Part shown: positions 7,731 through 49,985 of the stretch, piece after piece | Layout: each line of letters starts with the position of its first letter | Numbering within the stretch: position 1 is the stretch's first letter | Origin: Flaccisagitta enflata | Taxonomy: Eukaryota | DNA length: 64,000 nt | Assembly: GCA_965153355.1 (NCBI GenBank) | Contig: OZ231126.1 | Location: 34,286,001-34,350,000, forward strand | Reading direction: 5' to 3' | The notes under the pieces: generated by a model | What the model was told of the DNA's origin: nothing | What the model saw: the letters and a program-made list of their open reading frames with translations, nothing else | Database searches by the model: none | Position numbers and translations under genes: made by a program

Positions 7731-9194
7731 AGTCGCGTGCATGTGACTCTGTGCTCCACTCTGTCCGTCGGAGTCGGTCCTGTCCGTAGTCAGTCTAAAT
7801 GATGTGGTAACACTTTGCTTTTTTGCATCTTTTTGGGTCGTCTGGAGTTATTTTGAGTCATTTTTTTGTTGTTTTTGGGAATTATTGGTTGCTTTTAGTC
7901 ATTTTTGGTCATTTCTGGTCATTTTTGGTCATTTTTGGTCATTTTGGTCATTTTGGTCATTTTTGATTATTTTTGATTATTTTTGATTATTTTTGATTAT
8001 TTTTGATTATTTTTGATTGTTTTTGATCATTTTTGGTCATTTTTGGTCATTTTTGGTCATTTTTGATCATTTTTGATCATTTTTGGTCATTTTTGGTCAA
8101 TTTTGGTCGAATTTGGTCATTTTTGGTCATTTTTGGTCATTTTTGATCATTTTTAGTCATTTTGGTCATTTTGGTCATTATTGGTCATTAATGGTCATTT
8201 TTGGTCATTTTTAGTCATTTTTGGTCATTTTTGGTCATTTTTGGTCATTTTGATCATTTCAGTCATTTTTGGTCATTATTGGTTATTTTTGGTCATTTTT
8301 GGTCATTTTTGGTTAAAGTCTGCTGGTTAAAGTCTGCTGGGTAAAGACTGATGGTTAAAGTCTGCTGGTTTAAATCTACTGGTTTAAGTCTGCTGATTTA
8401 AGTCTGCTGGTTTAAATCTAATGGGTTAAGTCTGCTGGTTAAAGTCTGCTGGTTTAAATCTGCTGGTTTAAGTCTGCTGGTTTAAGTCTGCTGGTTTAAA
8501 TTTAATGGTTTAAGTCTGCTGGTCTAATGGTTTAAGTCTGCTGGTTTAAGTCTGCTGGTTAACATGATATTAAAGATAAGTATGGTTTAAGTCTGGTTAA
8601 AGTCTGGTTCAAGTCTGGTTTAAGTCTGGTTTACGTCTGGTTTGAGTCTGTTTTTAGTCTGGTTTAAGACTGGTTCATGTCTGATTTAGGTCTGGTTTAG
8701 GTCTGGTTTAGGTCTGGTGTATGTCTGGTTTTTGTCTAGTTTATGTTTGATTTAGGTCTGATTTAGGTCTGGTTTTGGTCTGGTTTTGGTCTGGTTTTGG
8801 TTTGGTTTAATTCTGGTTTGAGTCTGGTTTGAGTCTGGTTTTAGTCAGGTTTGAGTCTGGTTTGAGTCTGGTTTGAGTCTGGTTTGAGTCTGGATTGAGT
8901 CTGATTTGAGTCTGGTTTGAGTCTGGTTTGAGTCTGGCTTAAATCTGGTTTAGGTCTGGTTTATGTCTGGTTTATGTCTGGTTTCGGTCTGGTTTAATTC
9001 TGGTTTTAGTCTGGTTTGAGTCTGGTTTGAGTCTGGTTTGAGTCTGGTTTGAGTCTGGTTTGAGTCTGGTTTGAGTCTGGTTTGGGTCTGGTTTGGGTTT
9101 GGTTTATGTCTGATTTTCAATAAAAAGATACAAAAAGGTCAGGTCAGTTCAGTTATTTCTGTCCTGCACGCGACTTATAGGTGTTGGCCTTGTT
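7731..9194 (-). mobile_element. DINE-1/HINE-like element (family C) with expanded internal minisatellites
   Basis: Ends agtcgcgtgcatgtgact and ggtgttggccttgtt match, inverted, the short copy at 22092-22295; interior is arrays of ttttggtca, gtctgctggtttaa and gagtctggttt. Confidence 0.7.
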
Positions 9195-9598
9195 ACCTAT
9201 TCTACCTTCTTTTCTGGTCGTCCCCTCTTCCCCTGGGTCATCCCTTGTGAAGCACCTTTTCCCCTTTGGTGTTTTCCAACTGCGATGCGGCAAAATAGTG
9301 GAAAGGCTAATGTGTTGTAGAAAACAGGGGTCCATCTTTCCATTCAATTTGGCCGCTGCCCAAAAAGGTAGAGAAAAGAAACCATCACCAGTAGTTGCAT
9401 TGTCTCATGTCCTGTTTAATTATGTGCGACTATCCGACCAACTCTTGGATAGCGATTTTAACTTTGCTAGCTATTTTCTCTCCATGCCCTCCCTGCCCTC
9501 CATGCCCTCCATGTCCTCCCTGCCCTCCGCCTCTAAAGCTAAAGTAATCCACAGAGTCTCTCTCTTTCTTTTGTTTTTCGAAATTCATTGCATAACGA

Positions 9599-10065
<467 letters not shown>

Positions 10066-10367
10066 TTAAAGACGAAGCCATGTCAGTGTGTATCCGTCGG
10101 TGCAAGCGGGCGTGTGCTTGTGTAGTGTGTAGATTGTGAGCCTCTGACTTATGTACTCACAGGAGCTTTATATTCAAATCGAATTTGTAACGTTGTTGGG
10201 CGGAGTGTCTGAGGTCGGGTCTGTGAGTGAAGCCGGCCCCCGATTTCTGCCTTCTGGCTCTCGTTCGTCTCTGAGCCTCAGGTTGGGTCGCAAAACCGCC
10301 TCTCAACCGAAACTCAGTTAAAAGGAATGGTTTCCAATGTACGTGCACACCTCGTCAATAGTAATCG

Positions 10368-10676
<309 letters not shown>

Positions 10677-34354: not shown

Positions 34355-34775
34355 AGAAAGCGGGGTTGTGTAACATACATTGGAAAATACAAGGCTGTGT
34401 GACAGGTGTGTGATGGGTCCGGATTAAACACCAGTGAGAGCTCCAAAGGCTCTCATCCTTTATTAAAGTAGGGTTGAGTAGTAATGTTGTCCAACTTTCA
34501 TACATTGGAACAAACTAGGTGGTGTGATATACATCAAAGAATTCAGGGATGTGTGACATGTGCAACAATTCATCCTACATACATTGTAGAAAAAATGGGT
34601 GAAGTGACATACATCAGAGAATTCTGGACTGTGTGACATACATTGGAAAAACTGGGTGGTGTGACATTCATCGGAGAATTCTGGGCTGTGTGACATACAT
34701 TAGAGAAAACTTGGTGGTGTGACACACATCAAAGAATTTTGGGCTGTGTGACGTACATCGACGAAAAATGGGTGG
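34355..34775 (+). repeat. Satellite of alternating ~29-bp subunits (left part)
   Basis: gtgtgacatacatcggagaattctgggct / gtgtgacatacattggagaaaactgggtg; continues after the retrotransposon. Confidence 0.9.
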
Positions 34776-35686
34776 TATAAAGTACGCCCACGAGTTTCAA
34801 CTGGCACTGTCTATGAGCGTCTATCTGACTGACGACTTGTGGTGAAAGAAAGTTGGCCGATTGGAAAATAGGAAGGCGATCGTCTCGTTTATTCCATAAA
34901 AATTTCAACAACTGAAGAGAGGGGGAAAAATGAAAGGGAAAGTGGGCGTTAATTGTGATCAGCAAACGCAAAAGATAACATGAAATCGAGATAGGACACA
35001 ATAAAGGACAGAAACAGCACATGACAACATGTTCATCTTCTTCAGAGCCCATGCCACCTGATAATACCTGCCCCTGCCCCGGCCCATCCCATTAAATTCA
35101 TCCATATCATCCCTATAGCAAGCTGATCGGACTAGCGATAAAAACCATACTAAAATCCGGCGATAAAGATGCAAAAGGGCAAAAGACAAAAATAACAGAC
35201 CGGAAGACAAGATAAAAACAACGTTAATAAAAGCAGAAACACGTCTATAAAACTTACTTTTAGGCCCACTTTCGTTGGTTTCAACCCACAGTCTGTCGAT
35301 GTCAAATTAACGTTAATTGTCCGTTCATTAGTTTATCTGCAATAAAAAGATGAGAGATTATTGAAATTAGTGAATTCCAAGGGCGCATTCAAACGATCAT
35401 AAAAATCAATCAATCACTTTAAGAAGCGATGCCATAATTAAATAAAATCAATCAATCCAAAAATTGGATGATACGAAAGACGAGTTACGTATATTTGCCT
35501 ACGTAGTAAAAACAAATGGCACAAAATCAAGGCGCAACCATATGGTTACCCATCTAGCGTTCAATATAAAAAATGGCAAGAAACAAAAGACACGGGCATC
35601 GAATAGTAGAAAGAAAAAGCCAAAAGCACGCAAAAGAGACAGAAGGCACACACACCTAAGAGACGGACAGACATACATTTCTAACA
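34776..35686 (-). repeat. 3' LTR (911 bp)
   Basis: Direct repeat of 47061-47976 with only a few substitutions and small indels visible by eye. Confidence 0.95.
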
Positions 35687-35701
35687 TTCTGCCCCATTTT
35701 T
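35687..35701 (-). promoter_or_regulatory. Polypurine tract
   Basis: AAAAATGGGGCAGAA immediately before the TGTTAG start of the 3' LTR on the minus strand. Confidence 0.8.
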
Positions 35702-36487: not shown

Positions 36488-38863
36488 TTACAACAAAAAC
36501 TCAACCTCAACCCTTCCCAAACCATGATACTTACGCGGGCGTTTTTCGCCAGGCCCCGGGGCGGACGTCATTCCCACGCCCCGGGTAGCGCCCCCGACTT
36601 GGCCGGCCTGTCCATCGATGGGATGAGGATGTGATGGTGGAATACGATCCTCAGCGAATGGCGGCGCTCTCCACGCCATGTTGCAAATTGGTAGTTAAAT
36701 TGAACAGCAACTGGGCGTGGCACCAATCAGCGTTTAGCTGGCGGTCTGATTTTTCCAAGGCCTGGTTCGATTTTCTTATTCCCAGGCTTGGGAGCGTCTT
36801 TGCGACAGGATCTGCTGACCGACTTTTTCTGCTGGAGAAGACGCAGGAGGTGGAGATGCTGCATCGCAATTCGGCGCAATCGAAATTCGGACGTACAGCG
36901 GACGCAGTTTTAAAGTCGACGGCCATAGCCGCCTTTGCGCGTTCCACCGCTTCCTCTTTCTTCTTAGCCTTCATCGCACAGGCCTGCTTCTCCTTTTCAA
37001 GCTGCTTCTCCAGTTCCACGACTCGCTTGTTGCCTTTGACCACCTCATTGTCCGCAGCCATTGCTGCTCGACGAGCATCGTCTCTCTCCTGTTGGATGTT
37101 GCGACGAATCCTCTCGTCTAAGACTTGACGAGCCGCTTCAACTCGTTGACGCGGCGGAAGCGACGCGAAGAAGTCTTTTGGAAGCCTGGATGCTAAATTC
37201 TTCACCACCCCCAATGGAGCATTTGAGGTCAGCGAAGAGGCTTCTCGTAGCAATGACTCGGCGATGTGGTGTCCATGCGCAGGATCAAAGGCTGGATCCG
37301 ACGGGGGAGGCGGGTTCTGCACTTGCTGCAGACCTTGGGCAGACTCGGTTTGCTGACGAGGCGCTACCAGCTTTAACAGATGCTGAAGCACCGCCAACTA
37401 GTTCGCTTCCTACCGCGGCTTTTGATGGCTGCGAGTGAAAGGAAGACGCTCCCGTCTGCTGACCAGAGACTTGAGGTTTAACAGCGGACGCCGAAGCACC
37501 GCAAGTAGAACCTCCCTTGGTTGCTGCTTTGTGCTTTTTCCCAGCTCTCTTGGTCTTCTTCCCCTTTGCTGCCGCTGCCCCAGGCGCCTGATCCAGCTTC
37601 TGGGTTGCTGCCAACGTTGCCGTCGACGAACCACTTGAAGCTTCTCCTTGGCCTTTGGGCGTTACTGCTGCAGGGGGCGCGCCTGGAGGCGCTTGAAGGG
37701 GGCCTTTGCTTTTGGAATTTGGCCCTTTTTGTTGACTCTGCACATTGCGCGTTTGTGGAGTCTTTCCCCGACGTGATCTCTTCGATTGTTGTGAGGGAGT
37801 GACGTCACGAGGACCCTGTTGCTGCTGATTTGGGGGATGAACCAATCCAGGGCGCGATTGACGACTTCCTGATGCTGTAGAGTGAATTGCCGCTGATGTA
37901 GCTGCGGCTGCGTCGAGCACGAATACCGCTGGTGGAGTTGCGGAAGCGTCGACAGCAGTTGCACCAGGAGGCTTCGGAGCCGCATTCTTCCTCTTCGTCG
38001 CTTGGACCATGCGACGAACCTCCTTATCATGCTCCCTCCTTCTTTTGTTGCTTTGGATTTTGCGCTCCAGAGTCTCCGAGCCCAGCTCTGTTTGATTAGC
38101 CGATGAGCGCATGAGAGTTTGTTTGTTGCAGCATACTGAAAGTTTTTCAAACTCTTTGAAGAGGAGAGATACTTCGACGTCCGGACTGATGATACGATAC
38201 CACCGCGCCTGCATCCGTTGGTGTTTCTCTTCCGGCGTCGCAGTGTCCACTTCGGAGTCAATGCCTTTCTCCACCACCTCCCATTCACCAACACCTCCTC
38301 CTCTATTTCCATCCCCTCCTCCTCCACTCTTGCTCCATCATTGACCAATCTCTCTCTCTCTTCGCCCCCGCTGCGTTGACGTGCAGCTGCAGACGCTTGA
38401 TCACGAGACGCTGGGCGACCGAAATCAAGGCAGAATTGGCGAGGCGATGGGGGCAAATCCGATGATGATGACGCCGCCGCGGAAGTGGTGGATAAGTCCG
38501 TCGGCGGCCGATTGATCGCAATCCGCCTCGAACCTCCATCTTTGATGACCACCAATGGAAGGCGGCAGCGGGATCAACGGCGTTGGATGGCTGTTGACGA
38601 TTTACCAACGCATCATCTTGTTGACGCTTTTTATTCGCCATTTTTGCGTCGGCCCGAGCGAAGGTCGCCATTGAAGGCTGCCAGCGCGACAGCCTCCTCC
38701 TCCGCCCCGAACGACGTCGTGGATGCAGATCCCTCTCGAGTCGAGCCGTCGTTGAAGAGTCGATGAAGATCCAGGACCCGTACGACGTCGACACGTCGGC
38801 TTCAGCCTCGAGACGCGCTGCTGACGGGACATCTTGACTCCGACGAGCGACTTCAAGATGCAA
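36488..38863 (-). CDS. Extra ORF region downstream of pol (unknown product, broken into overlapping frames)
   Basis: Chain of overlapping minus-strand ORFs (38303-38863, 37662-38555, 37285-38277, 36651-37397, 36488-36679); GC-rich block with a low-complexity Ala/Ser/Gln/Lys segment and a coiled-coil-like segment. Confidence 0.6.
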
Positions 38864-39183
38864 ACTGACTTCGTAGATGGAATGACGTCGTCAGCGGAAG
38901 CTTTGAAATGTTCGTGTTGAAGAACTGATAAAGGTAAGAACGGATTTGGCACAATAATATGTACATATAGACAGGGCGAATGAATCAGTGTTTTGATGTG
39001 TAAATGGAAATGGACAACATAATTGACAAGAGGAAAGATGAAAGCATGGATAATCAGAACCAAATATGAATAATAACAACTCTTTGTAAATATAACAAGT
39101 CAGAGTATCAATCACTCATATCTATAGTTACTAATGGACAGGCCCATGCGCCTTTTTCTCTCTCTCTCAAAACTTAGCGTTTT

Positions 39184-39798: not shown

Positions 39799-42711
39799 TC
39801 AGGGAGTTGACGAGCGGTTCCAAGCTTCCATTTCCTTCTTGAGGATGTTGTTGGCGCCGACTAGATTCGTCCCACAATCTGATGTGAAACGGCGGATTCC
39901 TGGGCGCCTTGCTGCAAAGCGGATGATTGCATTTACCATCGCATCGGCTGACATGTTGAAGAGCAATTCCACATGGACGGCGCGTGACACGAAACAGGTG
40001 AACACTGCGATCCACACCTTATGATCAGCACGCCCGTTCATTTTTACCATGAAATGCCCCATGACGTCCAATCCAGTCTCTGCAAAGACAGGCGCCGGAT
40101 TGACGCGATTTGATGGAAGATTGGCCATTTGCTGATTTGCGTTCTTTTTAAAGTTCTTCTGGCATCTAAAGCACGTGTTGACGACGCTCTTGACGGCCTG
40201 AAGACCTTTTGTAATCCACACAAATTGGCGTAATTGGCACAATGTATGCTTTGCACCCGCGTGAAAATCATTATGATGATAATGGCGAATTAATGATTTC
40301 ACATTCTCGTCTTTTGGCGGCAGGATAAAGGGAAATTTAGCGTCGTGAGAGATGTCGGCATTTTCCAATCGACTGCCGACGCGAAGGATGCCGTCGTCGT
40401 CGACGAAAGGGTTCAACTTCCGCATCTCCTTGTTCTTTATGATAAAGTCACGACGGCTTTCTGGCTTGAAGACTTTTCCCAATTCCAATTGTTCGAAGAC
40501 GTCAGAATAATGCTGCCGCTGCATTGACTTGACGAGCCGTTTGCGCGCCTCCTCCACGACGTCTTGCGTCACTTCCGGTTTTGGAAGGAGATCTTTTGTT
40601 GCTCGTGTCTTCGCCCTTGGATACGCTCTCCACCTTTTGACTGCGATGAGAACCATGCCGATAATCCGCAATTTCTGCATCCATTTTCCCCGAGAAGCGG
40701 CTGCAAGAAGTATCGCGTCAGCCACTTGTTTCTTTTCACTCTCAGCCGCATACAGAGCGGCGACCTGTGCAGAAATAGGGCACGTCGCGATGTTCGTCTT
40801 TGGCCATTGATCTTCGGGAAGACGCAAAAATGCAGGGCCTTGATGGAATTGACGCCATTTTTCGGCTTCATGGGCCTGGATGCCTCTGCTACAGTGGTCC
40901 GCCGGGTTGTTTGACGAGTCAACCCAGCGCCACTGTTGAGGATCAGACCCACTATGGATCTTGGAGAGACGATTGGCGAAGAATACAGGCCTCGGTTTTG
41001 CCGGATTGTAAATCATCTTCAGTGCAGATTCAGAATCGGACCAAAATCTGACGACGAGATTGTCCAAGTTGATGGTCCTTCCGACGAAGCGTTTGAGCTG
41101 CACTGCTTTTTCTGCGGATACAATCTCGACGCGTGGAACGCTGTTGTGATGAGAGGCACGTTTTGGATTGAGAGGAATGACGTGAGATTTGGATGCGATG
41201 AATGAAATGTGAACATCTCCATCTCGGTTGACTTGACGTCGATATGCAACTGCTCCATATCCGCCTTTTGGAGCTGCATCGCAAAATAACTCGATTGTTA
41301 CTTCCGCAATGTCGCTATTGTCGACGCCGCCATTCCACCAGCGTTCAATTCGATATTGTTGTAGAAGAGGCCAAGATGAAGTATAGCGGAAGAAAGATTC
41401 CTCAACGCTCTCTTCCAAGGGCGAATCCCATCCCACTTCCTGTGGACGACAGAGTTGAAGATGACGTCTGCCGATGTATGCGCTTGGACTCCAAAAACCC
41501 AATGGATCGTAAAGTTTCGCTTGCATAGAGACCAATTGACGAGGTGTTTTTGCTCTAAGAGTTTTGAATTCTTCGTCGCAGATGAAAATAAAGACGTCTT
41601 CCGCCGGAAGCCATGAGACGCCCAACACCTTCGTCGGCGCATCATCTTGCTTATCTGAAATGGGGATTGGCACATTTGGATCTCCATCCATCAATTGCCG
41701 CGCATTGCTCTTCCACTTCACAAGATCCATCCCGCCTTCCGCCATCGCCGCCACTGAATCCACCTTTAGTTGCAGTGCTTCGTCGACCGAATCCCCACCC
41801 CCACTTCCGTCGTCGACGTAAAAACCATAGCGAATAAGATCGTAGACGTTGTAGGGGTATTTGGGCCGGATTACTTCAGCATGCTTTCTGACGGTGAAAG
41901 ATGTGACGAATGAGCTGGATTGGCTGCCGAAGACGTGTGATAAAAACAGATTCAAAATTGCTTCTCGAAGAGTGCGGTCCTTGAACCAAAAGAATCTGAA
42001 TAAATCAGCGTCGTCAGGATGGACGCGGATTTGGTGGAAAAACGCCTTTATGTCACACATAAAGGCGATTTTCCACTGACGAAAACGCATGAGGATGTCC
42101 ATCAGGCTATTCATCAAATTTGGGCCTCCGACGAGCAAATCATTGAGTGAGATCCCGTCGGTCGCCGCACGCGCATCGTGACATACGCGCGTTTTTCCGC
42201 GCAATTCGACAATATGAAGCGGCAAGTACCAGCGCGGCTTCTCAATGCCGTCGTCGTCGTCGACGTTGTCAATCTCAATCGCCACTCCCGTCTCGTAAAA
42301 CTTCTCGATTTCACGGAAGACTCTTTCTTTGAAGGCTGGATCACGCTTGAAGCGAAAACGTTGGTTACCGAGTCGCTTCATCGCAGTCGGTCGTGATTTC
42401 ACTCTTCTCAGAATCTCCATGATTTTTTCATGATGAAATTTCCATGTGACAGGAGCAAAGTACTTTTTCACAATTGGGCAAAAATATATCTTTTCCTCTA
42501 ACGTTTTGCACGCTCTGACATTTTCAAGGGAATCACCCATCTCCTCTTGCGAGACGATTGATGATGCAAAGTCATGGTAGAAGATGCGGTCGATGTTGCT
42601 GTTGAGGACGATTGTCGAGGATGCGATCGATGTTATCGTTGAGGACGCGGTCATCCGTCGCGATAGCGTTGATCGACGCAATATCTCGTCCTCTTTTGCC
42701 CGTTTTTCCAC
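39799..42711 (-). CDS. pol: Reverse transcriptase, RNase H (Pao peptidase_A17 type), integrase zinc finger and core
   Basis: CDIKAFFHQI, HVFGSQSS, FYVDD; LFCDA..GYGAVAY, VPRVE, FWSDS, NPADHCSRG; H..H/CFRC; GLDVMG, TSDCGTN. Confidence 0.96.
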   Translation of the reverse strand: MEKRAKEDEILRRSTLSRRMTASSTITSIASSTIVLNSNIDRIFYHDFASSIVSQEEMGDSLENVRACKTLEEKIYFCPIVKKYFAPVTWKFHHEKIMEILRRVKSRPTAMKRLGNQRFRFKRDPAFKERVFREIEKFYETGVAIEIDNVDDDDGIEKPRWYLPLHIVELRGKTRVCHDARAATDGISLNDLLVGGPNLMNSLMDILMRFRQWKIAFMCDIKAFFHQIRVHPDDADLFRFFWFKDRTLREAILNLFLSHVFGSQSSSFVTSFTVRKHAEVIRPKYPYNVYDLIRYGFYVDDGSGGGDSVDEALQLKVDSVAAMAEGGMDLVKWKSNARQLMDGDPNVPIPISDKQDDAPTKVLGVSWLPAEDVFIFICDEEFKTLRAKTPRQLVSMQAKLYDPLGFWSPSAYIGRRHLQLCRPQEVGWDSPLEESVEESFFRYTSSWPLLQQYRIERWWNGGVDNSDIAEVTIELFCDAAPKGGYGAVAYRRQVNRDGDVHISFIASKSHVIPLNPKRASHHNSVPRVEIVSAEKAVQLKRFVGRTINLDNLVVRFWSDSESALKMIYNPAKPRPVFFANRLSKIHSGSDPQQWRWVDSSNNPADHCSRGIQAHEAEKWRQFHQGPAFLRLPEDQWPKTNIATCPISAQVAALYAAESEKKQVADAILLAAASRGKWMQKLRIIGMVLIAVKRWRAYPRAKTRATKDLLPKPEVTQDVVEEARKRLVKSMQRQHYSDVFEQLELGKVFKPESRRDFIIKNKEMRKLNPFVDDDGILRVGSRLENADISHDAKFPFILPPKDENVKSLIRHYHHNDFHAGAKHTLCQLRQFVWITKGLQAVKSVVNTCFRCQKNFKKNANQQMANLPSNRVNPAPVFAETGLDVMGHFMVKMNGRADHKVWIAVFTCFVSRAVHVELLFNMSADAMVNAIIRFAARRPGIRRFTSDCGTNLVGANNILKKEMEAWNRSSTP

Positions 42712-43231
42712 ATACAGTCCAACCGAATAGACATCTGAAGCAAGTCAAAGATCCTGAAGGCCCTCGACGGATTTCTTGAGCGACGGCGGCATCCGCATGC
42801 GCCGCTCCGATGATCATCATCACACCGCCTTCAGCTTCTGGAAATTTTACGCCTTCGATGTGAGGTTGGTCAGATAGGTCGCGGAGAAAAGGAGGAATAT
42901 CGCGTTCACTCGTTAACAAATCACCCACCAATGCGTCGCTGATGTCGACGACGTATTCCTCGTCGACCGATTGCATGGTGAATGATGCGATGAAACGATC
43001 CTCAACAACATGACTTCCCACAGTAATCACCGTCATTTGCACTGTTTTTGTTGGAATCAGAAGACTGCGAATGACGCTGGTACTGATCACGTCGCGATCA
43101 GCGCCTGAGTCGATCATAGCATATATCGTCCTCTGCGCACCCGAAGAATTGTTTAATATAGTCACTGGAACGATCGGACGGACAACGTCGTCGAATGAAG
43201 AGACGGACCGCGACGTTGCCGTCGCCGCCAG
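42572..43231 (-). CDS. pol: Aspartic protease, in frame with gag after a single TGA
   Basis: RPIVPV...YAMIDSGADRDVI, MIIGAAH, CLFGWTVCG. Confidence 0.9.
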   Translation of the reverse strand: MAATATSRSVSSFDDVVRPIVPVTILNNSSGAQRTIYAMIDSGADRDVISTSVIRSLLIPTKTVQMTVITVGSHVVEDRFIASFTMQSVDEEYVVDISDALVGDLLTSERDIPPFLRDLSDQPHIEGVKFPEAEGGVMMIIGAAHADAAVAQEIRRGPSGSLTCFRCLFGWTVCGKTGKRGRDIASINAIATDDRVLNDNIDRILDNRPQQQHRPHLLP

Positions 43232-46207
43232 TCATGCCGTGGCGTTAGGAGAGATGATTTCCGTTGGATTGGCTGCCTCCGTCGTCGACGGAGCTGTTGG
43301 TGCTGCTGCAGCCGCATCCTCTGACTTTTTGAAGGGAGCCAGCGGTACTTTATTTCCCTGCTTGTTTTCTCCTTTCTTCTCTTCCTTTTCTTCTTTCTTG
43401 TAGGTGCGCCCGTGGAGAATCGTCGCGTGCCGCTTCTTGCAGGTTTGGCAAGTCGGTCTGTTCACGCATCCTTTGGCGTTGTGTCCTGGCGTGAGACAGT
43501 GGAAGCAAAGACGACGAGACATGATCTTTTGAACTCTCGCGTCCACTTCCAACTCTAATAGTTGATGACAGTTTTCCGTTTGATGCATTCCACTGCAGAC
43601 GTTGCAGCGGTCCGTCGACTGCGTCTTTTGCTTGCCATTGGTCAAAGCATCTTCATATGATGATGGCGCTTCTTTCTCTGTAGTTGCGACTGCTGCCACT
43701 GATGCTGTTTTGCAGCTTGCGCCTTTGTTGCGCTGAATCACCGCCCATGTCTCGATCATATTGACCAAGTTGTCGAATGAAAACAATTGTCCATTTAGGG
43801 CTGCTTCATGTTGCTTTTCCCAGAATTTATCTGCAAGATGAGGGACCCTCTTGTTGAGAATCTCCTGCAGCAGCTCGTCACGATAGCATTGTTGCACTTC
43901 TCCACAGGTCCTCGCAATCTTCTTTGCCTTTTGCAACCTTGCAGACAAATTGAAATGCCTTGCATGGTCGGCCGACTGGATCTTCGCCTCCGCGACGATT
44001 TCGTTGAACAGCGCCGCAATGTTGCAGCGCCTTGCCATAAAGACGACGTCCATTTTTGCGAAGGCGTCGTCAATCTCTCCTCTTGCTGTCGCTTCAGTTG
44101 CATCAATCGTCGCAGTTTCTATGATCTCTTTTGCCGGACCAGCAAACCACTTAGGCAATTCCAATAAGATGTCCATTTGCGTCAAGCCTTCATGCTTCTC
44201 AGCATCTTTAAACTTCCTCTTCCACATCATAAAGTCGGTGGATGAAAGCTCCTGCAGAGGCTTCTCAGGTCTTGCTCTCTCCAACGCTTTGAGGCCGACC
44301 TCCCTTGCTCGCATGAGATCATTGTACGTCGCTCTTTCCAAAAACCTGTCCAGCGCCGGATTGTTGGGCATCTGAACGTGGACTTCCGGTTGACGGGCTA
44401 CTTGATGATGCTCCACTTGATGATACGCTGAGGGTTGTTGGACGAAGGCGTATTGACCCCCGACTTTCACCGGAGATCTCTTTTTGGTGGTTTTAACGCT
44501 CCACCCCACTTCCTCTTGCTGATTCACTTGTTGTTGACGATCATCTTGATGGAATCGGGGAGCATCAAAATCTTGGCGGACGTACTGTCGCTGTTGTTGT
44601 TCCTCTTTTCGTTGTTTTTCTTCTGCTCTCGCTGCGGCAAGGTCAAAGTCTCTCTGCTGAATCTGCATCTTCAAACTATCCACTTCTTGCTGCAAACGTT
44701 GATTCTGCTGGATGACTTCCGCTTGAGGCGTTACTAGAGGCGCTTGCGCTACTTTCGGCGCCTTCGGCTGCAATCCATTCGTTGTCTTCTTGGGAGCGAC
44801 TTTTCTTCTCTCTTTATCTTGCAGCTGTTGTGCCAACTTCGCGTCAGCGGCCTCCTGCTTCTGCCTCCTGCGCATCGCCTCCGTTGCATCACCTCCGCTT
44901 CCGGCTGTGTTGAAGACCTTTTCCTCTTGATGGGGAAGACCAGTCTCCCTTCTAGCAGAGCCAATCTGCTTCTCGAAGATCACTTCCGGTGCGGTAGGGA
45001 GAATCGTTGCTGCTGGGGCTTGATGATGCTGATCTTGATGCTGTTGCTGTTGTTGAAGCCGTTGCTGCTGCCACTGTTGATGTTGAAGCTGCTGTTGCTG
45101 GTCAGGACGCTGTTGCTGTTCATTCTGCTGCTGCAGTTGACGCTGACGTTGTCCTTGCTGCTGCTGCTGCTCCCACTGTTGCTGCTGCTGCATCGGCTGC
45201 TTGACGGACGTTTCCACTGACTGCACATGACGTTGCTGTGTGTTCGAATTGAAGTTTCTGAAGATAGATCGACGGTCTTTTGGCGGATGCTGCGGCTGCT
45301 GCTGTTCCAGCTCAGACAGTTGCCTAAGCTTCACATCACGCTGCTCTAAAGCCCCACCAATGCCGCCGTCGTTCAGGCTATTCCAGTGCTTTCGTTGCAT
45401 TTCTGCCGCATTGTTGAATATTCCCGCTCTTCTATCTTCATCTCGTTGCTGCTGCTGGAGAAAGTTACACATTCTGTCGTATAACTCTTTGTCTTCTTGT
45501 GATGAGCTTCGCTGTTGGAATCCCAATGGCACCGCGATCGGCGCCTTTGGAGCTGTTGCTGCACCACCACCTTCACCTTCAGCCATCATGCGCAGCCGTT
45601 GATCTGCAAGGCGTTGCTGTCTCTCTTCTTCTGTCTCCTCACTGACGTTCATGCTTTCGACAAGATGGTTGTTTGAAGCTGGAGGATCCACCACCACCGC
45701 TGGGATTGCGGCGGAAGGTTGCTGTTGCTGCTGCTGTTGCTGTTGCGTACTTTCTCCTGCATCGTTTTGCCGCTGTTGTTGTTGTTCGTGCGGCTGCATT
45801 GCCGTTTGTCGCAGCTCTTGTTGTTGTTGCTGTTGCTGTTGTTGCTGCTGTTGATCGTGTTGTTGTTGTTGTTGAGCGCCGGCTGCAGGATCTTGTTGAC
45901 AAAATTGTTGGAGTTGCTGCAACTGCTGCTGCTGCAACAGCTCTTGCTGCTGCCGTTGAGCCGTCGTTTGCTGCTGCTCCTGTGGTCGGTGGAGTTGACG
46001 TTGCTGTTGGAGTTGCTGCTGCATCTGCAATTGATGCTGCTGCTGTTGCTCCTGCTGCTGTCGCTGCTCCTCCTCCCGTTGTTGCTGCTGCATATCGTCA
46101 ATCAGCCGACGGCCTTGTCGCATTTCCTCCTCCAACTGCCTGCCCCATCTGTCTCTCTCAGCACTCCTGTTGACGAAGCGTCGCCTCGCCCTCTCCTGCG
46201 GCGTCAA
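43232..46207 (-). CDS. gag: Gag: polyQ-rich N-terminal half, capsid-like region, three zinc knuckles
   Basis: CNVCSGMHQTENC, CFHCLTPGHNAKGC, CQTCKKRHATILH; FMMWKRKF capsid-region motif. Confidence 0.92.
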   Translation of the reverse strand: MTPQERARRRFVNRSAERDRWGRQLEEEMRQGRRLIDDMQQQQREEEQRQQQEQQQQHQLQMQQQLQQQRQLHRPQEQQQTTAQRQQQELLQQQQLQQLQQFCQQDPAAGAQQQQQHDQQQQQQQQQQQQELRQTAMQPHEQQQQRQNDAGESTQQQQQQQQQPSAAIPAVVVDPPASNNHLVESMNVSEETEEERQQRLADQRLRMMAEGEGGGAATAPKAPIAVPLGFQQRSSSQEDKELYDRMCNFLQQQQRDEDRRAGIFNNAAEMQRKHWNSLNDGGIGGALEQRDVKLRQLSELEQQQPQHPPKDRRSIFRNFNSNTQQRHVQSVETSVKQPMQQQQQWEQQQQQGQRQRQLQQQNEQQQRPDQQQQLQHQQWQQQRLQQQQQHQDQHHQAPAATILPTAPEVIFEKQIGSARRETGLPHQEEKVFNTAGSGGDATEAMRRRQKQEAADAKLAQQLQDKERRKVAPKKTTNGLQPKAPKVAQAPLVTPQAEVIQQNQRLQQEVDSLKMQIQQRDFDLAAARAEEKQRKEEQQQRQYVRQDFDAPRFHQDDRQQQVNQQEEVGWSVKTTKKRSPVKVGGQYAFVQQPSAYHQVEHHQVARQPEVHVQMPNNPALDRFLERATYNDLMRAREVGLKALERARPEKPLQELSSTDFMMWKRKFKDAEKHEGLTQMDILLELPKWFAGPAKEIIETATIDATEATARGEIDDAFAKMDVVFMARRCNIAALFNEIVAEAKIQSADHARHFNLSARLQKAKKIARTCGEVQQCYRDELLQEILNKRVPHLADKFWEKQHEAALNGQLFSFDNLVNMIETWAVIQRNKGASCKTASVAAVATTEKEAPSSYEDALTNGKQKTQSTDRCNVCSGMHQTENCHQLLELEVDARVQKIMSRRLCFHCLTPGHNAKGCVNRPTCQTCKKRHATILHGRTYKKEEKEEKKGENKQGNKVPLAPFKKSEDAAAAAPTAPSTTEAANPTEIISPNATA

Positions 46208-46997
46208 TCCGTTGATGATCCCGCGACCTCTTGCAAGAGCGTCGCGTCGTCGAGATCCGCAAGCATGTCGTCAGCTTGCTCCATCGGAGACGCACGCGCA
46301 GGTTCGATTTCGAGACCAAATCTGATACCCATTGATTGGCGGCATCTCCTCTTTGGATCGGCAGATTTAAAAATTGGCCGCCAGTTGGAGATTGCGCACC
46401 ATGTCGTGGGACCGGAAGTGGTAAATACTCGGATCCGTCGGGGTTTGGCGACGACGTTCGCATCCTTGGAGTCGGAGCGCCGGTAACATTGTCACGGGCG
46501 GCGTGGGTGTCAGTTGGGAGACTATTCCATGAGAATTCGTTGACGGGCCTTTTGCAATTCCCAATGTCATTATGCACTGCGTTCACGATGTCGGCGTTGG
46601 AAGGAAAACCCTCTGGATAGTTTTCACGATCAAAGAAACGCATGGAGTCCCACTCGCGCCGGATTCGACGCAAAGAAGACGCCGCGAATCGAAGAGGGTC
46701 GCCGGGCATCGAGTCGAGCGCCATTTGTCTTGCATACGATATAAAGTCGTAGACCATGTCCCGAAGGCCGTGTCGAGCGCCATCCGATTCACAGGCGGCG
46801 TCGTCGAAGTCGTTCGTTCCTTCGGTGCAAGTAGAAACGGCGTCGAAAAGGCGCCGGCATCCTTCAATTTCCGCAGTGATGTCGTTCCTCATTGCGCGCA
46901 AACGATTCGACCTCGGACACTGATTCAAACCGAAGTGAGATACACGAGATGACGTTGAAGCAGTCGAGACGGTGTCGTCGTTACGCGCGGCTGCCAT
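46158..46997 (-). CDS. Probable N-terminal segment of Gag (frameshifted from the main gag ORF)
   Basis: First ATG (ACAATGG) 64 nt after the 5' LTR; 279-aa open frame overlapping the gag ORF. Confidence 0.65.
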   Translation of the reverse strand: MAAARNDDTVSTASTSSRVSHFGLNQCPRSNRLRAMRNDITAEIEGCRRLFDAVSTCTEGTNDFDDAACESDGARHGLRDMVYDFISYARQMALDSMPGDPLRFAASSLRRIRREWDSMRFFDRENYPEGFPSNADIVNAVHNDIGNCKRPVNEFSWNSLPTDTHAARDNVTGAPTPRMRTSSPNPDGSEYLPLPVPRHGAQSPTGGQFLNLPIQRGDAANQWVSDLVSKSNLRVRLRWSKLTTCLRISTTRRSCKRSRDHQRIDAAGEGEATLRQQEC

Positions 46998-47049
46998 TGT
47001 CCAATTTCGCTTTCGGAGGTCGAAGATGAAAAGAATCGAGTCGTTTTTA

Positions 47050-47060
47050 AATTGTTGAAA
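47050..47060 (-). promoter_or_regulatory. Putative self-priming primer-binding site
   Basis: TTTCAACAATT abuts the 5' LTR, has no TGG tRNA-type start, and is complementary to AGTTGTTGAAA at 47199-47189. Confidence 0.7.
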
Positions 47061-47976
47061 TATAAAATTACGCCCACGAGTTTCAACTGGCACTGTCTAT
47101 GAGCGTCTATCTGACTGACGACTTGTGGTGAAAGAAAGTTGGCCGATTGGAAAATAGGAAGGCGATCGTCTCGTTTATTCCATAAAAATTTCAACAACTG
47201 AAGAGAGGGGGAAAAATGAAAGGGAAAGTGGGCGTTAATTGTGATCAGCAAACGCAAAAGATAACATGAAATCGAGATAGGACACAATAAAGGACAGAAA
47301 CAGCACATGACAACATGTTCATCTTCTTCAGAGCCCATGCCACCTGATAATACCTGCCCCTGCCCCGGCCCATCCCATTAAATTCATCCATATCATCCCT
47401 ATAGCAAGCTGATCGGACAAGCGATAAAAACCATACTAAAATCCGGCGATAAAAATGCAAAAGGGCAAAAGACAAAAATAACAGACCGGAAGACAAGATA
47501 AAAACAACGTTAATAAAAGCAGAAACACGTCTATAAAACTTACTTTTAGGCCCACTTTCGTTGGTTTCAACCCACAGTCTGTCGATGTCAAATTAACGTT
47601 AATTGTCCGTTCATTAGTTTATCTGCAATAAAAAGATGAGAGATTATTGAAATTAGTGAATTCCAAGGGCGCATTCAAACGATCATAAAAATCAATCAAT
47701 CACTTTAAGAAGCGATGCCATAATTAAATAAAATCAATCAATCCAAAAATTGGATGATACGAAAGACGAGTTACGTATATTTGCCTACGTAGTAAAAACA
47801 AATGGCACAAAATCAAGGCGCAACCATATGGTTACCCATCTAGCGTTCAATATAAAAAATGGCAAGAAACAAAAGACACGGGCATCGAATAGTAGAGAAA
47901 GAGAAAAAGCCAAAAGCACGCAAAAGAGACAGAAGGCACACACACCTAAGAGACGGACAGACATACATTTCTAACA
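47061..47976 (-). repeat. 5' LTR (916 bp)
   Basis: TGTTAG start at 47976, TTTATA end at 47061; direct repeat of 34776-35686. Confidence 0.95.
47174..47201 (-). promoter_or_regulatory. Predicted initiator (TCAGTT, +1 at 47199) and AATAAA poly(A) signal defining R
   Basis: TCAGTT at 47201-47196 after a pyrimidine tract; AATAAA at 47179-47174; both are present in the 3' LTR. Confidence 0.6.
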
Positions 47977-49985
47977 GGTGGTGTGACATAAATCGGAGAA
48001 TTCTGGGCTGTGTGACATACATCAGAGAAAACTGGGTAGTGTGACATACCTCAGAGAATTCCGGGCTGTGTGACATACATCGGAGAAAACTGGGTGGTGT
48101 GACATACATCGGAGAATTCTGGGTTCTGTGACATACATCAGAGAAAATTGGGTGGTGTGACATACATCAGAGAATTCTGGGCTGTGTGATATACATTGAA
48201 GAAACTGGGTGGTGTGACATACATCAGAGAATTCCGGGCTGTGTGACATACATCGGAGAAACTGGGTGGTGTGACATACATTGAAGAATTCTGGGATGTG
48301 TGACATATATCGGACAAAACTGGGTGGTGTGACATACATCAGAGAATTCTGGGCTGTTTGACATACATTGGAGAAAACTGGATGGTGTGACATACATCGG
48401 AGAAATCTGGGCTGTGTGACATACATTGGAGAAAACTGGGCGGTGTGACATATATTGAAGAATTCTGGGCTGTGTGACATACATTGGAGAATTTTGGGCT
48501 GTATGACATACATTGGAGAAAACTGGGTGGTGTGACATACATCGGAGAATTCTGGGTTATGTGACATACATTGGAGAAAACTGGGTGGTGTGACATACAT
48601 CGGAGAATTTTTGGCTGTCGGACCTGCAGCGAAGAAAACTGGGTGGTGTGACATACATCGGAGAATTCTGGGCTGTGTGACATACATTGGAGAAAACTGG
48701 GTGGCGTGACATACATTGGAGAATTCTAGGCTGTGTGACATACAATGGAGAAAATTTGGTGGTGTGACGTACATTGGAGAATTCTAGGCTGTGTGACATA
48801 CATTGGAGAAAACTGGGTGGTGTGACATACATTGGAGAATTCTGGGCTGTATGACATACACTGGAGAAAACTGGGGGGTGTGACAGATATTGGAAAATTC
48901 AGGGCTGTGTAACATACATTATAGAAAACTTGGTGGTGTGACATACATCAGAGAATTCTGGGATGTGTGACATGTGCAACAATTCATCCTACATACATTG
49001 TAGAAAAAATGGGTGAAGTGACATACATCAGAGAATTCTGGACTGTGTGACATACATTGGAAAAACTGGGTGGTGTGACATACATCGGAGAATTATGGGC
49101 TGTGTGACGTACATTGGAAAAAACTAGGTGGTGTGACAGACATTGGAGATAACTGGGTGGTGTGACATACATCGGAGAATTCTGGGCTGTGTGACATACA
49201 TTAGAGAAAACTTGGTGGTGTGACACACATCAAAGAATTTTGGGCTGTGTGACCTACATCAAAGAAAACTGGGTGGTGTGACATAAATCGGAGAATTCTG
49301 GGCTGTGTGACATACATCAGAGAAAACTGGGTGGTGTGACATACGTCAGAGAATTCCGGGCTGTGTGACATACATCGGAGAAAACTGGGTGGTGTGACAT
49401 ACATCGGAGAATTCTGGGTTCTGTGACATACAAAAGAGAAAATTGGGTGGTGTGACATACATCGGAGAATTCTGGGCTGTGTGATATACTTTGAAGAAAC
49501 TGGGTGGTGTGACATACATCAGAGAATTTCGGGCTGTGTGACATACATTGGAGAAACTGGGTGGTGTGACATATGAATTTTGGTTTAAAAGTGATAATCA
49601 TTGCCCTAACTACTTTTGGTAAGCAGTTTGCTTTTGGGTTAGATTGAGAAGGAATGTTTTTCGGATTGTTTTATGGAAAACTAGGAGTGGTGCGCGTAGT
49701 AACTAGTCAGTGAGGGTTCACAAGGCCCTCTTCCATTTATTTCAGTTTGGGTATAGTGAGGGATATTGTTCCACTTTTCATACATCGAAGAATTCTGGCA
49801 TGTGTGACATATATTGGACAAAACTGGGTGGTGTGACATACATCAGAGAATTCTGGGCTGTTTGACATACATTGGAGAAAACTGGATGGTGTGACATACA
49901 TAGGAGAAATCTGGGCTGTGTGACATACATTGGAGAAAACTGGGCGGTGTGATATATATTGGAGAATTCTGGGCTGTGTGACATA
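47977..49985 (+). repeat. Satellite of alternating ~29-bp subunits (right part)
   Basis: Same units as 34355-34775; interrupted by unrelated sequence at ~49575-49778. Confidence 0.95.

Follow-up and report, generated by a model that had tools for sequence, protein, structure and literature searches.

The window, a 64,000-nucleotide stretch of contig OZ231126.1, contains a long terminal repeat (LTR) retrotransposon of the BEL/Pao superfamily, and this analysis concerns the segment that abuts the 5′ LTR of that element, which is complementary to the element's own LTR and from which reverse transcription may be self-primed. The element lies on the minus strand, as do all of its features described below, and spans 47976-34776 (13.2 kb). 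Its LTRs, a 5′ copy (47976-47061, 916 nt, TGTTAG...TTTATA) and a 3′ copy (35686-34776, 911 nt), form a direct repeat whose alignment of 916 columns contains 8 differences, of which 5 are gap columns and 3 are substitutions. The polypurine tract AAAAATGGGGCAGAA (35687-35701) lies directly 5′ of the 3′ LTR, which ends in TTTATA with the target duplication directly after it. That duplication, CCACC, is read from the sequence as 5 bp at 47981-47977 with its partner at 34775-34771, and the flanking 29/58-bp satellite comes back into phase once the element and one CCACC copy are taken out. Contigs from RNA libraries, in which two different flanks adjoin the 5′ LTR, confirm its outer edge (47976/47977). 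The insertion site is itself a satellite array with a 29-bp unit (58-bp dimer) that occupies 47977-49573, 49779-49985 and 34577-34776, and micro- and minisatellites abound throughout the window (37 TRF rows with a score of at least 200).

The BEL/Pao identity proposed earlier from the sequence alone is supported by the Pfam domains of pol, which comprise Peptidase_A17 (1.1e-28), Integrase_H2C2 (5.4e-09) and DUF5641 (3.7e-20), together with rve and RVT_1, both of which matched under the Pfam cut-offs; the relatives of the element share the same set. The order of these domains (A17 peptidase, reverse transcriptase, RNase H, integrase and a DUF5641 tail), LTRs within the range of 0.2-1.2 kb, the 5-bp target duplication and the polypurine tract are those of canonical BEL/Pao elements (Semotivirus: Tas, Pao, BEL and Sinbad), as is a possible third open reading frame (ORF). 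The element differs from these in its length, 13.2 kb against a genome of 4.2-10 kb, in a Q-rich gag of ~1250 codons and in its apparent want of a tRNA-type primer-binding site (PBS). It does not display the gypsy-type pol, often with a chromodomain integrase, that characterizes the Tf1/sushi clade of Ty3/gypsy; the Pfam search of pol returned no chromodomain match, and the nearest named proteins are BEL/Pao-like. Relatives of pol form a clade of metagenome proteins that are 40-97% identical to it, while named BEL/Pao proteins are at most 33% identical. The family is represented in DNA run X1 (organism A) by 8371 contigs on 46800-47985, and the window copy is a young but defective member of this very high-copy BEL/Pao family. 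At least part of the stretch was found in 20 of 24 runs from 12 studies of marine or aquatic metagenomes and RNA libraries, which makes a common animal of the marine plankton the probable host.

The 3′ limit of the LTR was examined by translating the open frame that runs through it (P0092) and searching the product against protein collections; the junctions recovered are back-translations, in which third codon positions are not visible. Nine proteins from other insertions matched P0092 (eight and P0105), of which seven reach the LTR end, while P0097 ends before it. In P0093, P0096 and P0099 the LTR is followed by the codons of TTTCAACAA and the leader, identifying them as 5′ LTR contexts. In P0094, P0095 and P0105 an unrelated flank follows right after the codons for ...TATA, this being a CA-type microsatellite, unrelated sequence and what looks like a non-LTR reverse transcriptase, respectively; P0098 departs ~5 nt before ...TATA. 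Codons of TTTCAACA occur in none of the four non-5′ junctions and are present in 5′ LTR contexts only. The perfect target duplication and the junctions of P0094, P0095 and P0105 therefore place the LTR end at TATA. The sequence-only reading had raised the concern that other insertions might reveal TTTCAACA to be part of the LTR; they do not, three further junctions leaving the LTR at ...TATA, and the boundary at which that reading had minus-strand DNA begin, where the 3′ LTR meets the target duplication (34776), holds.

The sequence abutting the 5′ LTR and its complement

As the LTR ends at TATA, the 11-mer that abuts the 5′ LTR, TTTCAACAATT (47060-47050), is the PBS by position. It is complementary to AGTTGTTGAAA (47199-47189, with a second copy at 34903-34913 in the 3′ LTR), which is the proposed self-primer. 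The helix between the two is contiguous and consists of 10 Watson-Crick pairs and one G-U, arranged as nine contiguous Watson-Crick pairs followed by the G-U and an A-U; the coordinates and pair counts are exactly those claimed before. Across the whole element, 47199-47189 and its 3′ LTR copy are the only complements of the PBS with at least 9 Watson-Crick pairs. Dinucleotide shuffling of the LTR produced an 11-nt site with at most one G-U 97 times in 20000 (0.5%), and for mock 11-mers taken from the element interior the corresponding figure was 41 of 11352 (0.4%), or 1 of 326 when these were AT-rich. The PBS is itself AT-rich, with 2 G/C in 11. In minimum-free-energy folds of the window RNA the PBS-primer helix is included and closes R-U5, and the RNA of a related element, L001, behaves likewise.

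The same region offers little for a tRNA. There is no TGG after the LTR before 46997-46995, just upstream of the gag ATG, and a 3′-tRNA PBS would have to be closer to the LTR end than this TGG. No tRNA-like Rfam match was obtained for 46950-47250 (four matches, all with E > 1), and no tRNA genes were found in the window or in 11 related loci. Judged by the absence of TGG and by Rfam, rather than by comparison with the tRNAs of the host, the element is one without a recognizable tRNA-type PBS, in agreement with the earlier statement that a TGG-type site was missing.

The position of the primer arm within the LTR is also distinctive. The single AATAAA of the LTR (47179-47174), a likely polyadenylation signal, places R, and the arm starts 20 nt upstream of it, matching the distance of about 20 nt given previously; its start is among the only three initiator-like motifs of the LTR. 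The arm begins at the A of TCAGTT (47201-47196), and the sequence-only reading had taken this hexamer to be an initiator. The motif is indeed at the start of the 11-mer, but it adds little evidence because the pairing already fixes AGTT, which makes up four of the six bases, and only TC is extra. It is, moreover, the end of a 16-nt pyrimidine tract followed by CAG (47216-47200, ending at the first base of the primer), which could equally be a 3′ splice site as an initiator context. A DPE-like (downstream promoter element) AGACG is found at +29 to +33, one base off the canonical spacing, and is not used here as evidence.

Two further observations concern these segments. The start of the LTR (47976-47964) looks like the U5 tip plus the PBS (47066-47053) in reverse-complemented form, the common form being TGTT[A]GAAAT[G/A]TA, and it also resembles the primer site with its context. 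Long-range pairing between the 5′ and 3′ regions of the RNA, as described for Ty1, is one possible reason for this resemblance. Separately, the metagenome ORF P0100 matches LTR positions 47308-47203 as far as ...CTCTT / ...CCCTCTCTT and departs exactly at the proposed primer start; its 119-residue tail has no match in the window or the related loci.

Conservation among copies and in a sister element

Variation among copies was assessed in run X1 at a threshold of 5%, which yielded at least 40 substitution rows and at least 10 indel rows. Among the variants listed at this threshold, none falls in 47044-47060 or in 47068-47416, so that both 11-mers are without a listed variant in the 8371 contigs; loss of the pairing in other copies, which would have counted against self-priming, is thus not observed. 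Variable positions lie in the U5 tip, further upstream in the LTR and in the leader past 47043. Proteins from other insertions give the same picture, as the PBS codons after the LTR are common to three other 5′ contexts (P0093, P0096 and P0099), the primer-arm codons are kept in 7 close homologs, and even in the diverged LTR copy P0105, a three-frame mosaic, the codons over the primer arm and AATAAA are still compatible. Conservation of the primer arm is, however, not specific, because the whole block of ~350 nt at 47068-47416 is invariant.

Between the two invariant blocks lies a hypervariable U5 tip (47061-47069, AATTTTATA and variants). In X1, positions 47064 and 47066 carry indels and 47067 is substituted; the tip also differs between the two LTRs of the window copy and among the codons of P0093, P0095, P0096 and P0099. 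Its last 7-9 nt differ in almost every copy, forms including AATTTTATA, AATTTATA, ACTTTATA, ACTTATA and AACTTATA, among others. A hypervariable tip beside an invariant PBS would fit error-prone initiation at this point.

Of the 11 related loci, all in metagenome_contigs (none was found in viral_contigs or genome_contigs), only L001, whose pol is 42% identical, extends upstream of gag; in L004 gag runs off the contig, and L005 ends inside a 3′ intron-like segment. Gag proteins with upstream extensions were also sought as a source of sister PBS sequences, and all 4 matches start at or after the gag ATG. In L001, gag and pol are separated by an in-frame TGA and accompanied by a third ORF and one LTR region, and the pre-gag sequence of this element, TTAATAACATTTAA, is the evident homolog of TTTCAACAATTTAA in the window. 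Its post-LTR homolog, TTAATAACA (2253-2261), forms 9 Watson-Crick pairs with TGTTATTAA (2156-2164), which starts 4 nt past the A of CTCTTCAG (L001 2146-2153), an 8-mer common to the window. The pairing bases of L001 differ from those of the window on both sides. In the corresponding test, with the 15 nt from the A of CTCTTCAG as the 5′ arm and the 80 nt before the ATG as the 3′ arm, such a pairing arose in 65 of 100000 leader shuffles, and mock arms drawn from the 1.3 kb upstream gave it in none of 1307 cases. The sequence-only reading had proposed to look for compensatory changes in sister families; L001 keeps a 9-bp pairing with changed bases, and a partner that changes along with the element favours an element-encoded over a host-encoded primer.

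L001 also contains a 15-bp helix between 1661-1675 and 2154-2168 (13 Watson-Crick pairs and 2 G-U), its arms lying just past a GTGAGT and just past CTCTTCAG, respectively. This helix has no counterpart in the window and was set aside.

Priming of minus-strand DNA synthesis

Taken together, these observations lead us to lean, by a modest degree, towards the view that the family starts minus-strand DNA without a tRNA, by self-priming of the kind described for Tf1. In such a scheme the RNA stretch at or near the 5′ end (47199-47189, the start of R) would fold back on 47060-47050, the RNA would be cut at the 3′ end of the duplex, and the freed 3′-OH would be extended through U5 and R. The resulting strong-stop DNA would begin opposite 47061, the last base of the LTR, where in the 3′ LTR the element meets target DNA. 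The scheme supposes that transcription starts at or upstream of 47199 and that the RNA is then cut and extended, and primer release by cleavage is entirely conjectural. Self-priming as first proposed, by the full 11-mer, is upheld in part: the BEL/Pao identity, the LTR end and the pairing in a sister element support it, whereas the absence of C at 47051 among the variants listed argues against a full 11-nt primer.

The likeness to Tf1 and Tf2 of Schizosaccharomyces pombe and to the Tf1/sushi group is close. These elements likewise have no tRNA site, a PBS that abuts the 5′ LTR and is complementary to ~11 nt of their own LTR RNA, and a fold-back helix that closes R-U5 (excerpts of PMC11042837, PMC6934838 and PMC5445492), and self-priming is described for Tf1 and its relatives in the excerpted text of the last two. 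In Tf1 around half of the cDNA carries a copy of the PBS at its 3′ end, as stated in the excerpts of PMC11042837. The element in the window, whose abutting PBS is complementary to its own LTR, differs from the Tf1/sushi group in belonging to another superfamily (Pao-type A17 peptidase, DUF5641 and no chromodomain match), in the G-U pair within its helix and in LTRs that end in TA rather than CA. That the 11-mer forms the 5′ end of the RNA and is cut by RNase H are features of Tf1 that would apply here only by analogy. A second parallel is provided by the plant Ty1/copia lineage TAR (Houba and Osr-1), for which excerpts of PMC6317226 describe predicted self-primers; there too self-priming was deduced from sequence alone and outside Ty3/gypsy, although in plant copia elements, while the present element is an animal BEL/Pao. 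The TAR example indicates that the trait can arise or spread outside Tf1/sushi.

For BEL/Pao itself, the Belpaoviridae profile of the ICTV, the international committee for virus taxonomy, describes a PBS of 18 nt with complementarity to tRNA-Arg or tRNA-Gly and puts the genome at 4.2-10 kb, confirming the earlier remark that these elements are described as tRNA-primed, while PMC3118150 and PMC554778 make no mention of a PBS, primer binding or tRNA. The mechanism is thus known, but its occurrence in the BEL/Pao superfamily is not on record in the searchable literature. The sequence-only reading knew of no such report either; subscription journals and supplements lie outside the search, and an older report is possible.

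Several observations weigh against self-priming. The stability of the R-U5 fold is unexceptional (z = -0.47), being matched by 64 of 200 shuffles. Tf1 requires perfect complementarity between primer and PBS (excerpts of PMC5445492), whereas the helix in the window has 9 contiguous Watson-Crick pairs followed by the G-U and A-U. Copying of an 11-nt self-primer would be expected to place a C at 47051 (PBS position 10), yet among the variants listed for X1 the G-U is never replaced in this way, suggesting that at most 9 nt may prime; either a primer of 9 nt or incomplete copying would make this position compatible with self-priming. Other G-U-rich helices of 10-11 nt join the LTR to leader nucleotides 7-21. 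The contig of L001 has a single LTR, so its LTR end is not fixed (candidate starts at ~834, 878 and 938, candidate ends at 2252, 2261 and 2277). The positional homolog of the primer in L001, CAGTTGTTAAAT (~2081-2093), pairs over 8 bp only and in a shifted register, the putative R of L001 has no AATAAA, and a fairer probability for its helix is ~0.01 because the CTCTTCAG 8-mer was adopted as an anchor after the list of helices had been seen. The window copy itself is defective. Finally, ~6% of the raw-read poly(A) RNA run X23 contributed 0 reads on the stretch. Contigs from RNA libraries X15 and X16 do cover the LTR, and those from X15 bridge the LTR/PBS junction, which is not proof of transcription; no poly(A) or start pile-up is listed for these contigs, which cannot show RNA ends.

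Priming by a host RNA is the alternative that best withstands the data, although we regard it as unlikely. The primer could be an internal tRNA fragment, in the manner of the copia half-tRNA, a mitochondrial tRNA or another small RNA; the complement in the LTR might in that case have a purely structural role, masking or presenting the PBS in a helix comparable with the U5-leader pairings of retroviruses. Such an account accords with the ICTV description of BEL/Pao as tRNA-primed and with the half-tRNA sites of other superfamilies (excerpts of PMC6317226), and it readily explains a G-U that is tolerated and never corrected among the variants listed. The AT-rich PBS with no TGG, and the absence of anything tRNA-like in Rfam, are less easily accommodated, as is the observation that the post-LTR sequence and its LTR partner both change between the window and L001, a change that a conserved host RNA would not follow.

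That the complementarity is a chance match in T-rich sequence, the primer of the family being something else, is very improbable. The neighbouring G-U-rich helices and the unremarkable overall fold are in keeping with this explanation, and the invariance of the whole of 47068-47416 deprives the conservation of the arm of specificity. Against it stand the probability of ~0.5% for an exact abutting 11-mer, the uniqueness of the site in the element (bar its 3′ LTR copy), its placement beside the only AATAAA and the recurrence of the pairing in L001 with other bases.

A variant of self-priming, which we consider very improbable, has the arm at an exon junction rather than at the cap, with transcription starting further upstream and CTCTTCAG serving as a 3′ splice site. 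The pyrimidine tract and CAG at 47216-47200 read as a good splice acceptor, of the same form as that of the intron-like segments of the family, and the single GTAAGT of the LTR (47543-47538) is a possible donor; these, the only such motifs in the LTR, also count against a primer at the RNA 5′ end. Joined, they would give AAATTGTTGAAA, which is perfectly complementary to 47060-47049 over 12 nt and involves no G-U. Intron-like GTAAGT...CAG segments are kept in the 3′ region of both the window element and L001, with a donor in L005, and L001 has a GTGAGT at 1651, upstream of its CTCTTCAG. However, the joint from 47544 to 47199 is found in no RNA contig, the sole joint listed being a DNA one (47087 to 47184), and the contigs of X15 record 14 and X16 record 17 are unspliced across 47200. 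The same joining in L001 leaves the pairing no longer than before, and the two LTR copies would have to behave differently, with splicing needed in the 5′ one alone.

There is practically no case for TTTCAACA being the true LTR end, with TGTT...AACA inverted termini and a truncated 3′ LTR in the window copy: the LTR start TGTTAGAAATGTA does resemble the reverse complement of the U5 tip plus PBS (TGTT-GAAATATA), and in L001 GATCAACA (2270-2277) forms an inverted repeat with TGTTGATC, located after a purine tract at ~834, but the perfect 5-bp duplication obtained when the LTR ends at TATA, the departure of P0094, P0095 and P0105 after ...TATA and the absence of TTTCAACA codons from all four non-5′ junctions contradict an AACA-ending LTR, which was rejected.

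If self-priming is correct, the mechanism evolves repeatedly, and the element would supply a second, unrelated reverse transcriptase/RNase H for studying the cleavage of an RNA-RNA duplex. LTR retroelements rely on a host RNA at few steps, of which primer choice is one, and it is also a point of host counterattack; tRNA-derived small RNAs can target the PBS as a host defence (abstract of PMC7472051). Self-priming could also help to explain the very high copy number of the family. Annotation pipelines that match LTR elements to tRNA-complementary PBSs would miss or mis-trim self-priming families. A broader conjecture, which we would put at about even, is that a whole clade of BEL/Pao elements in marine zooplankton swapped tRNA for priming by its own RNA, in what would be a third independent origin after Tf1/sushi and TAR, the U5 tip being the scar of error-prone initiation. 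The members of the clade encountered in this analysis combine a large, Q-rich gag with TGA read-through into pol, and they also carry a third ORF and intron-like segments.

Coding regions and 3′ segments

The gag gene (46997-43235) is Q-rich and ~1250 codons long, and in the window copy it is carried in two frames that split near 46160-46270. Its start, MAAAR, is common to the sister proteins P0101 and P0102, and it has no Pfam match. It is unusually long and rich in CAG/CAA repeats; the gag of L001 (896 aa) contains one CCHC zinc knuckle. An in-frame TGA separates gag from pol (43234-43232), an arrangement shared with L001 and L004. In all three elements gag and pol are in one frame and the TGA is followed by CTG or CTA (window 43232-43234, L001 4965-4967, L004 1988-1990), which suggests programmed read-through rather than a frameshift. 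The pol gene (43231-39184; protease, reverse transcriptase, RNase H, integrase and DUF5641) is broken in the window copy, where the protease and reverse transcriptase occupy separate frames that overlap at 42572-42744 and an in-frame TGA occurs at 39799-39801; intact pol relatives are ~1300 aa in length.

Downstream of pol is a third ORF, which in L001 occupies 9031-10560 and 2-265 (510 aa, open-ended) and in L005 2510-4807 (765 aa), and which in the window (~36650-39100) is fragmented over several frames. This ORF has no Pfam match. It is followed by an intron-like segment of ~140 nt with the form CCCG[A/C]/GTAAGT...pyrimidine tract and CAG/AC, where the oblique strokes mark the putative splice points, at 36534-36395 in the window, 453-599 in L001 and 5029-5034 in L005 (donor only). 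The segment is retained in genomic copies of three sister elements.

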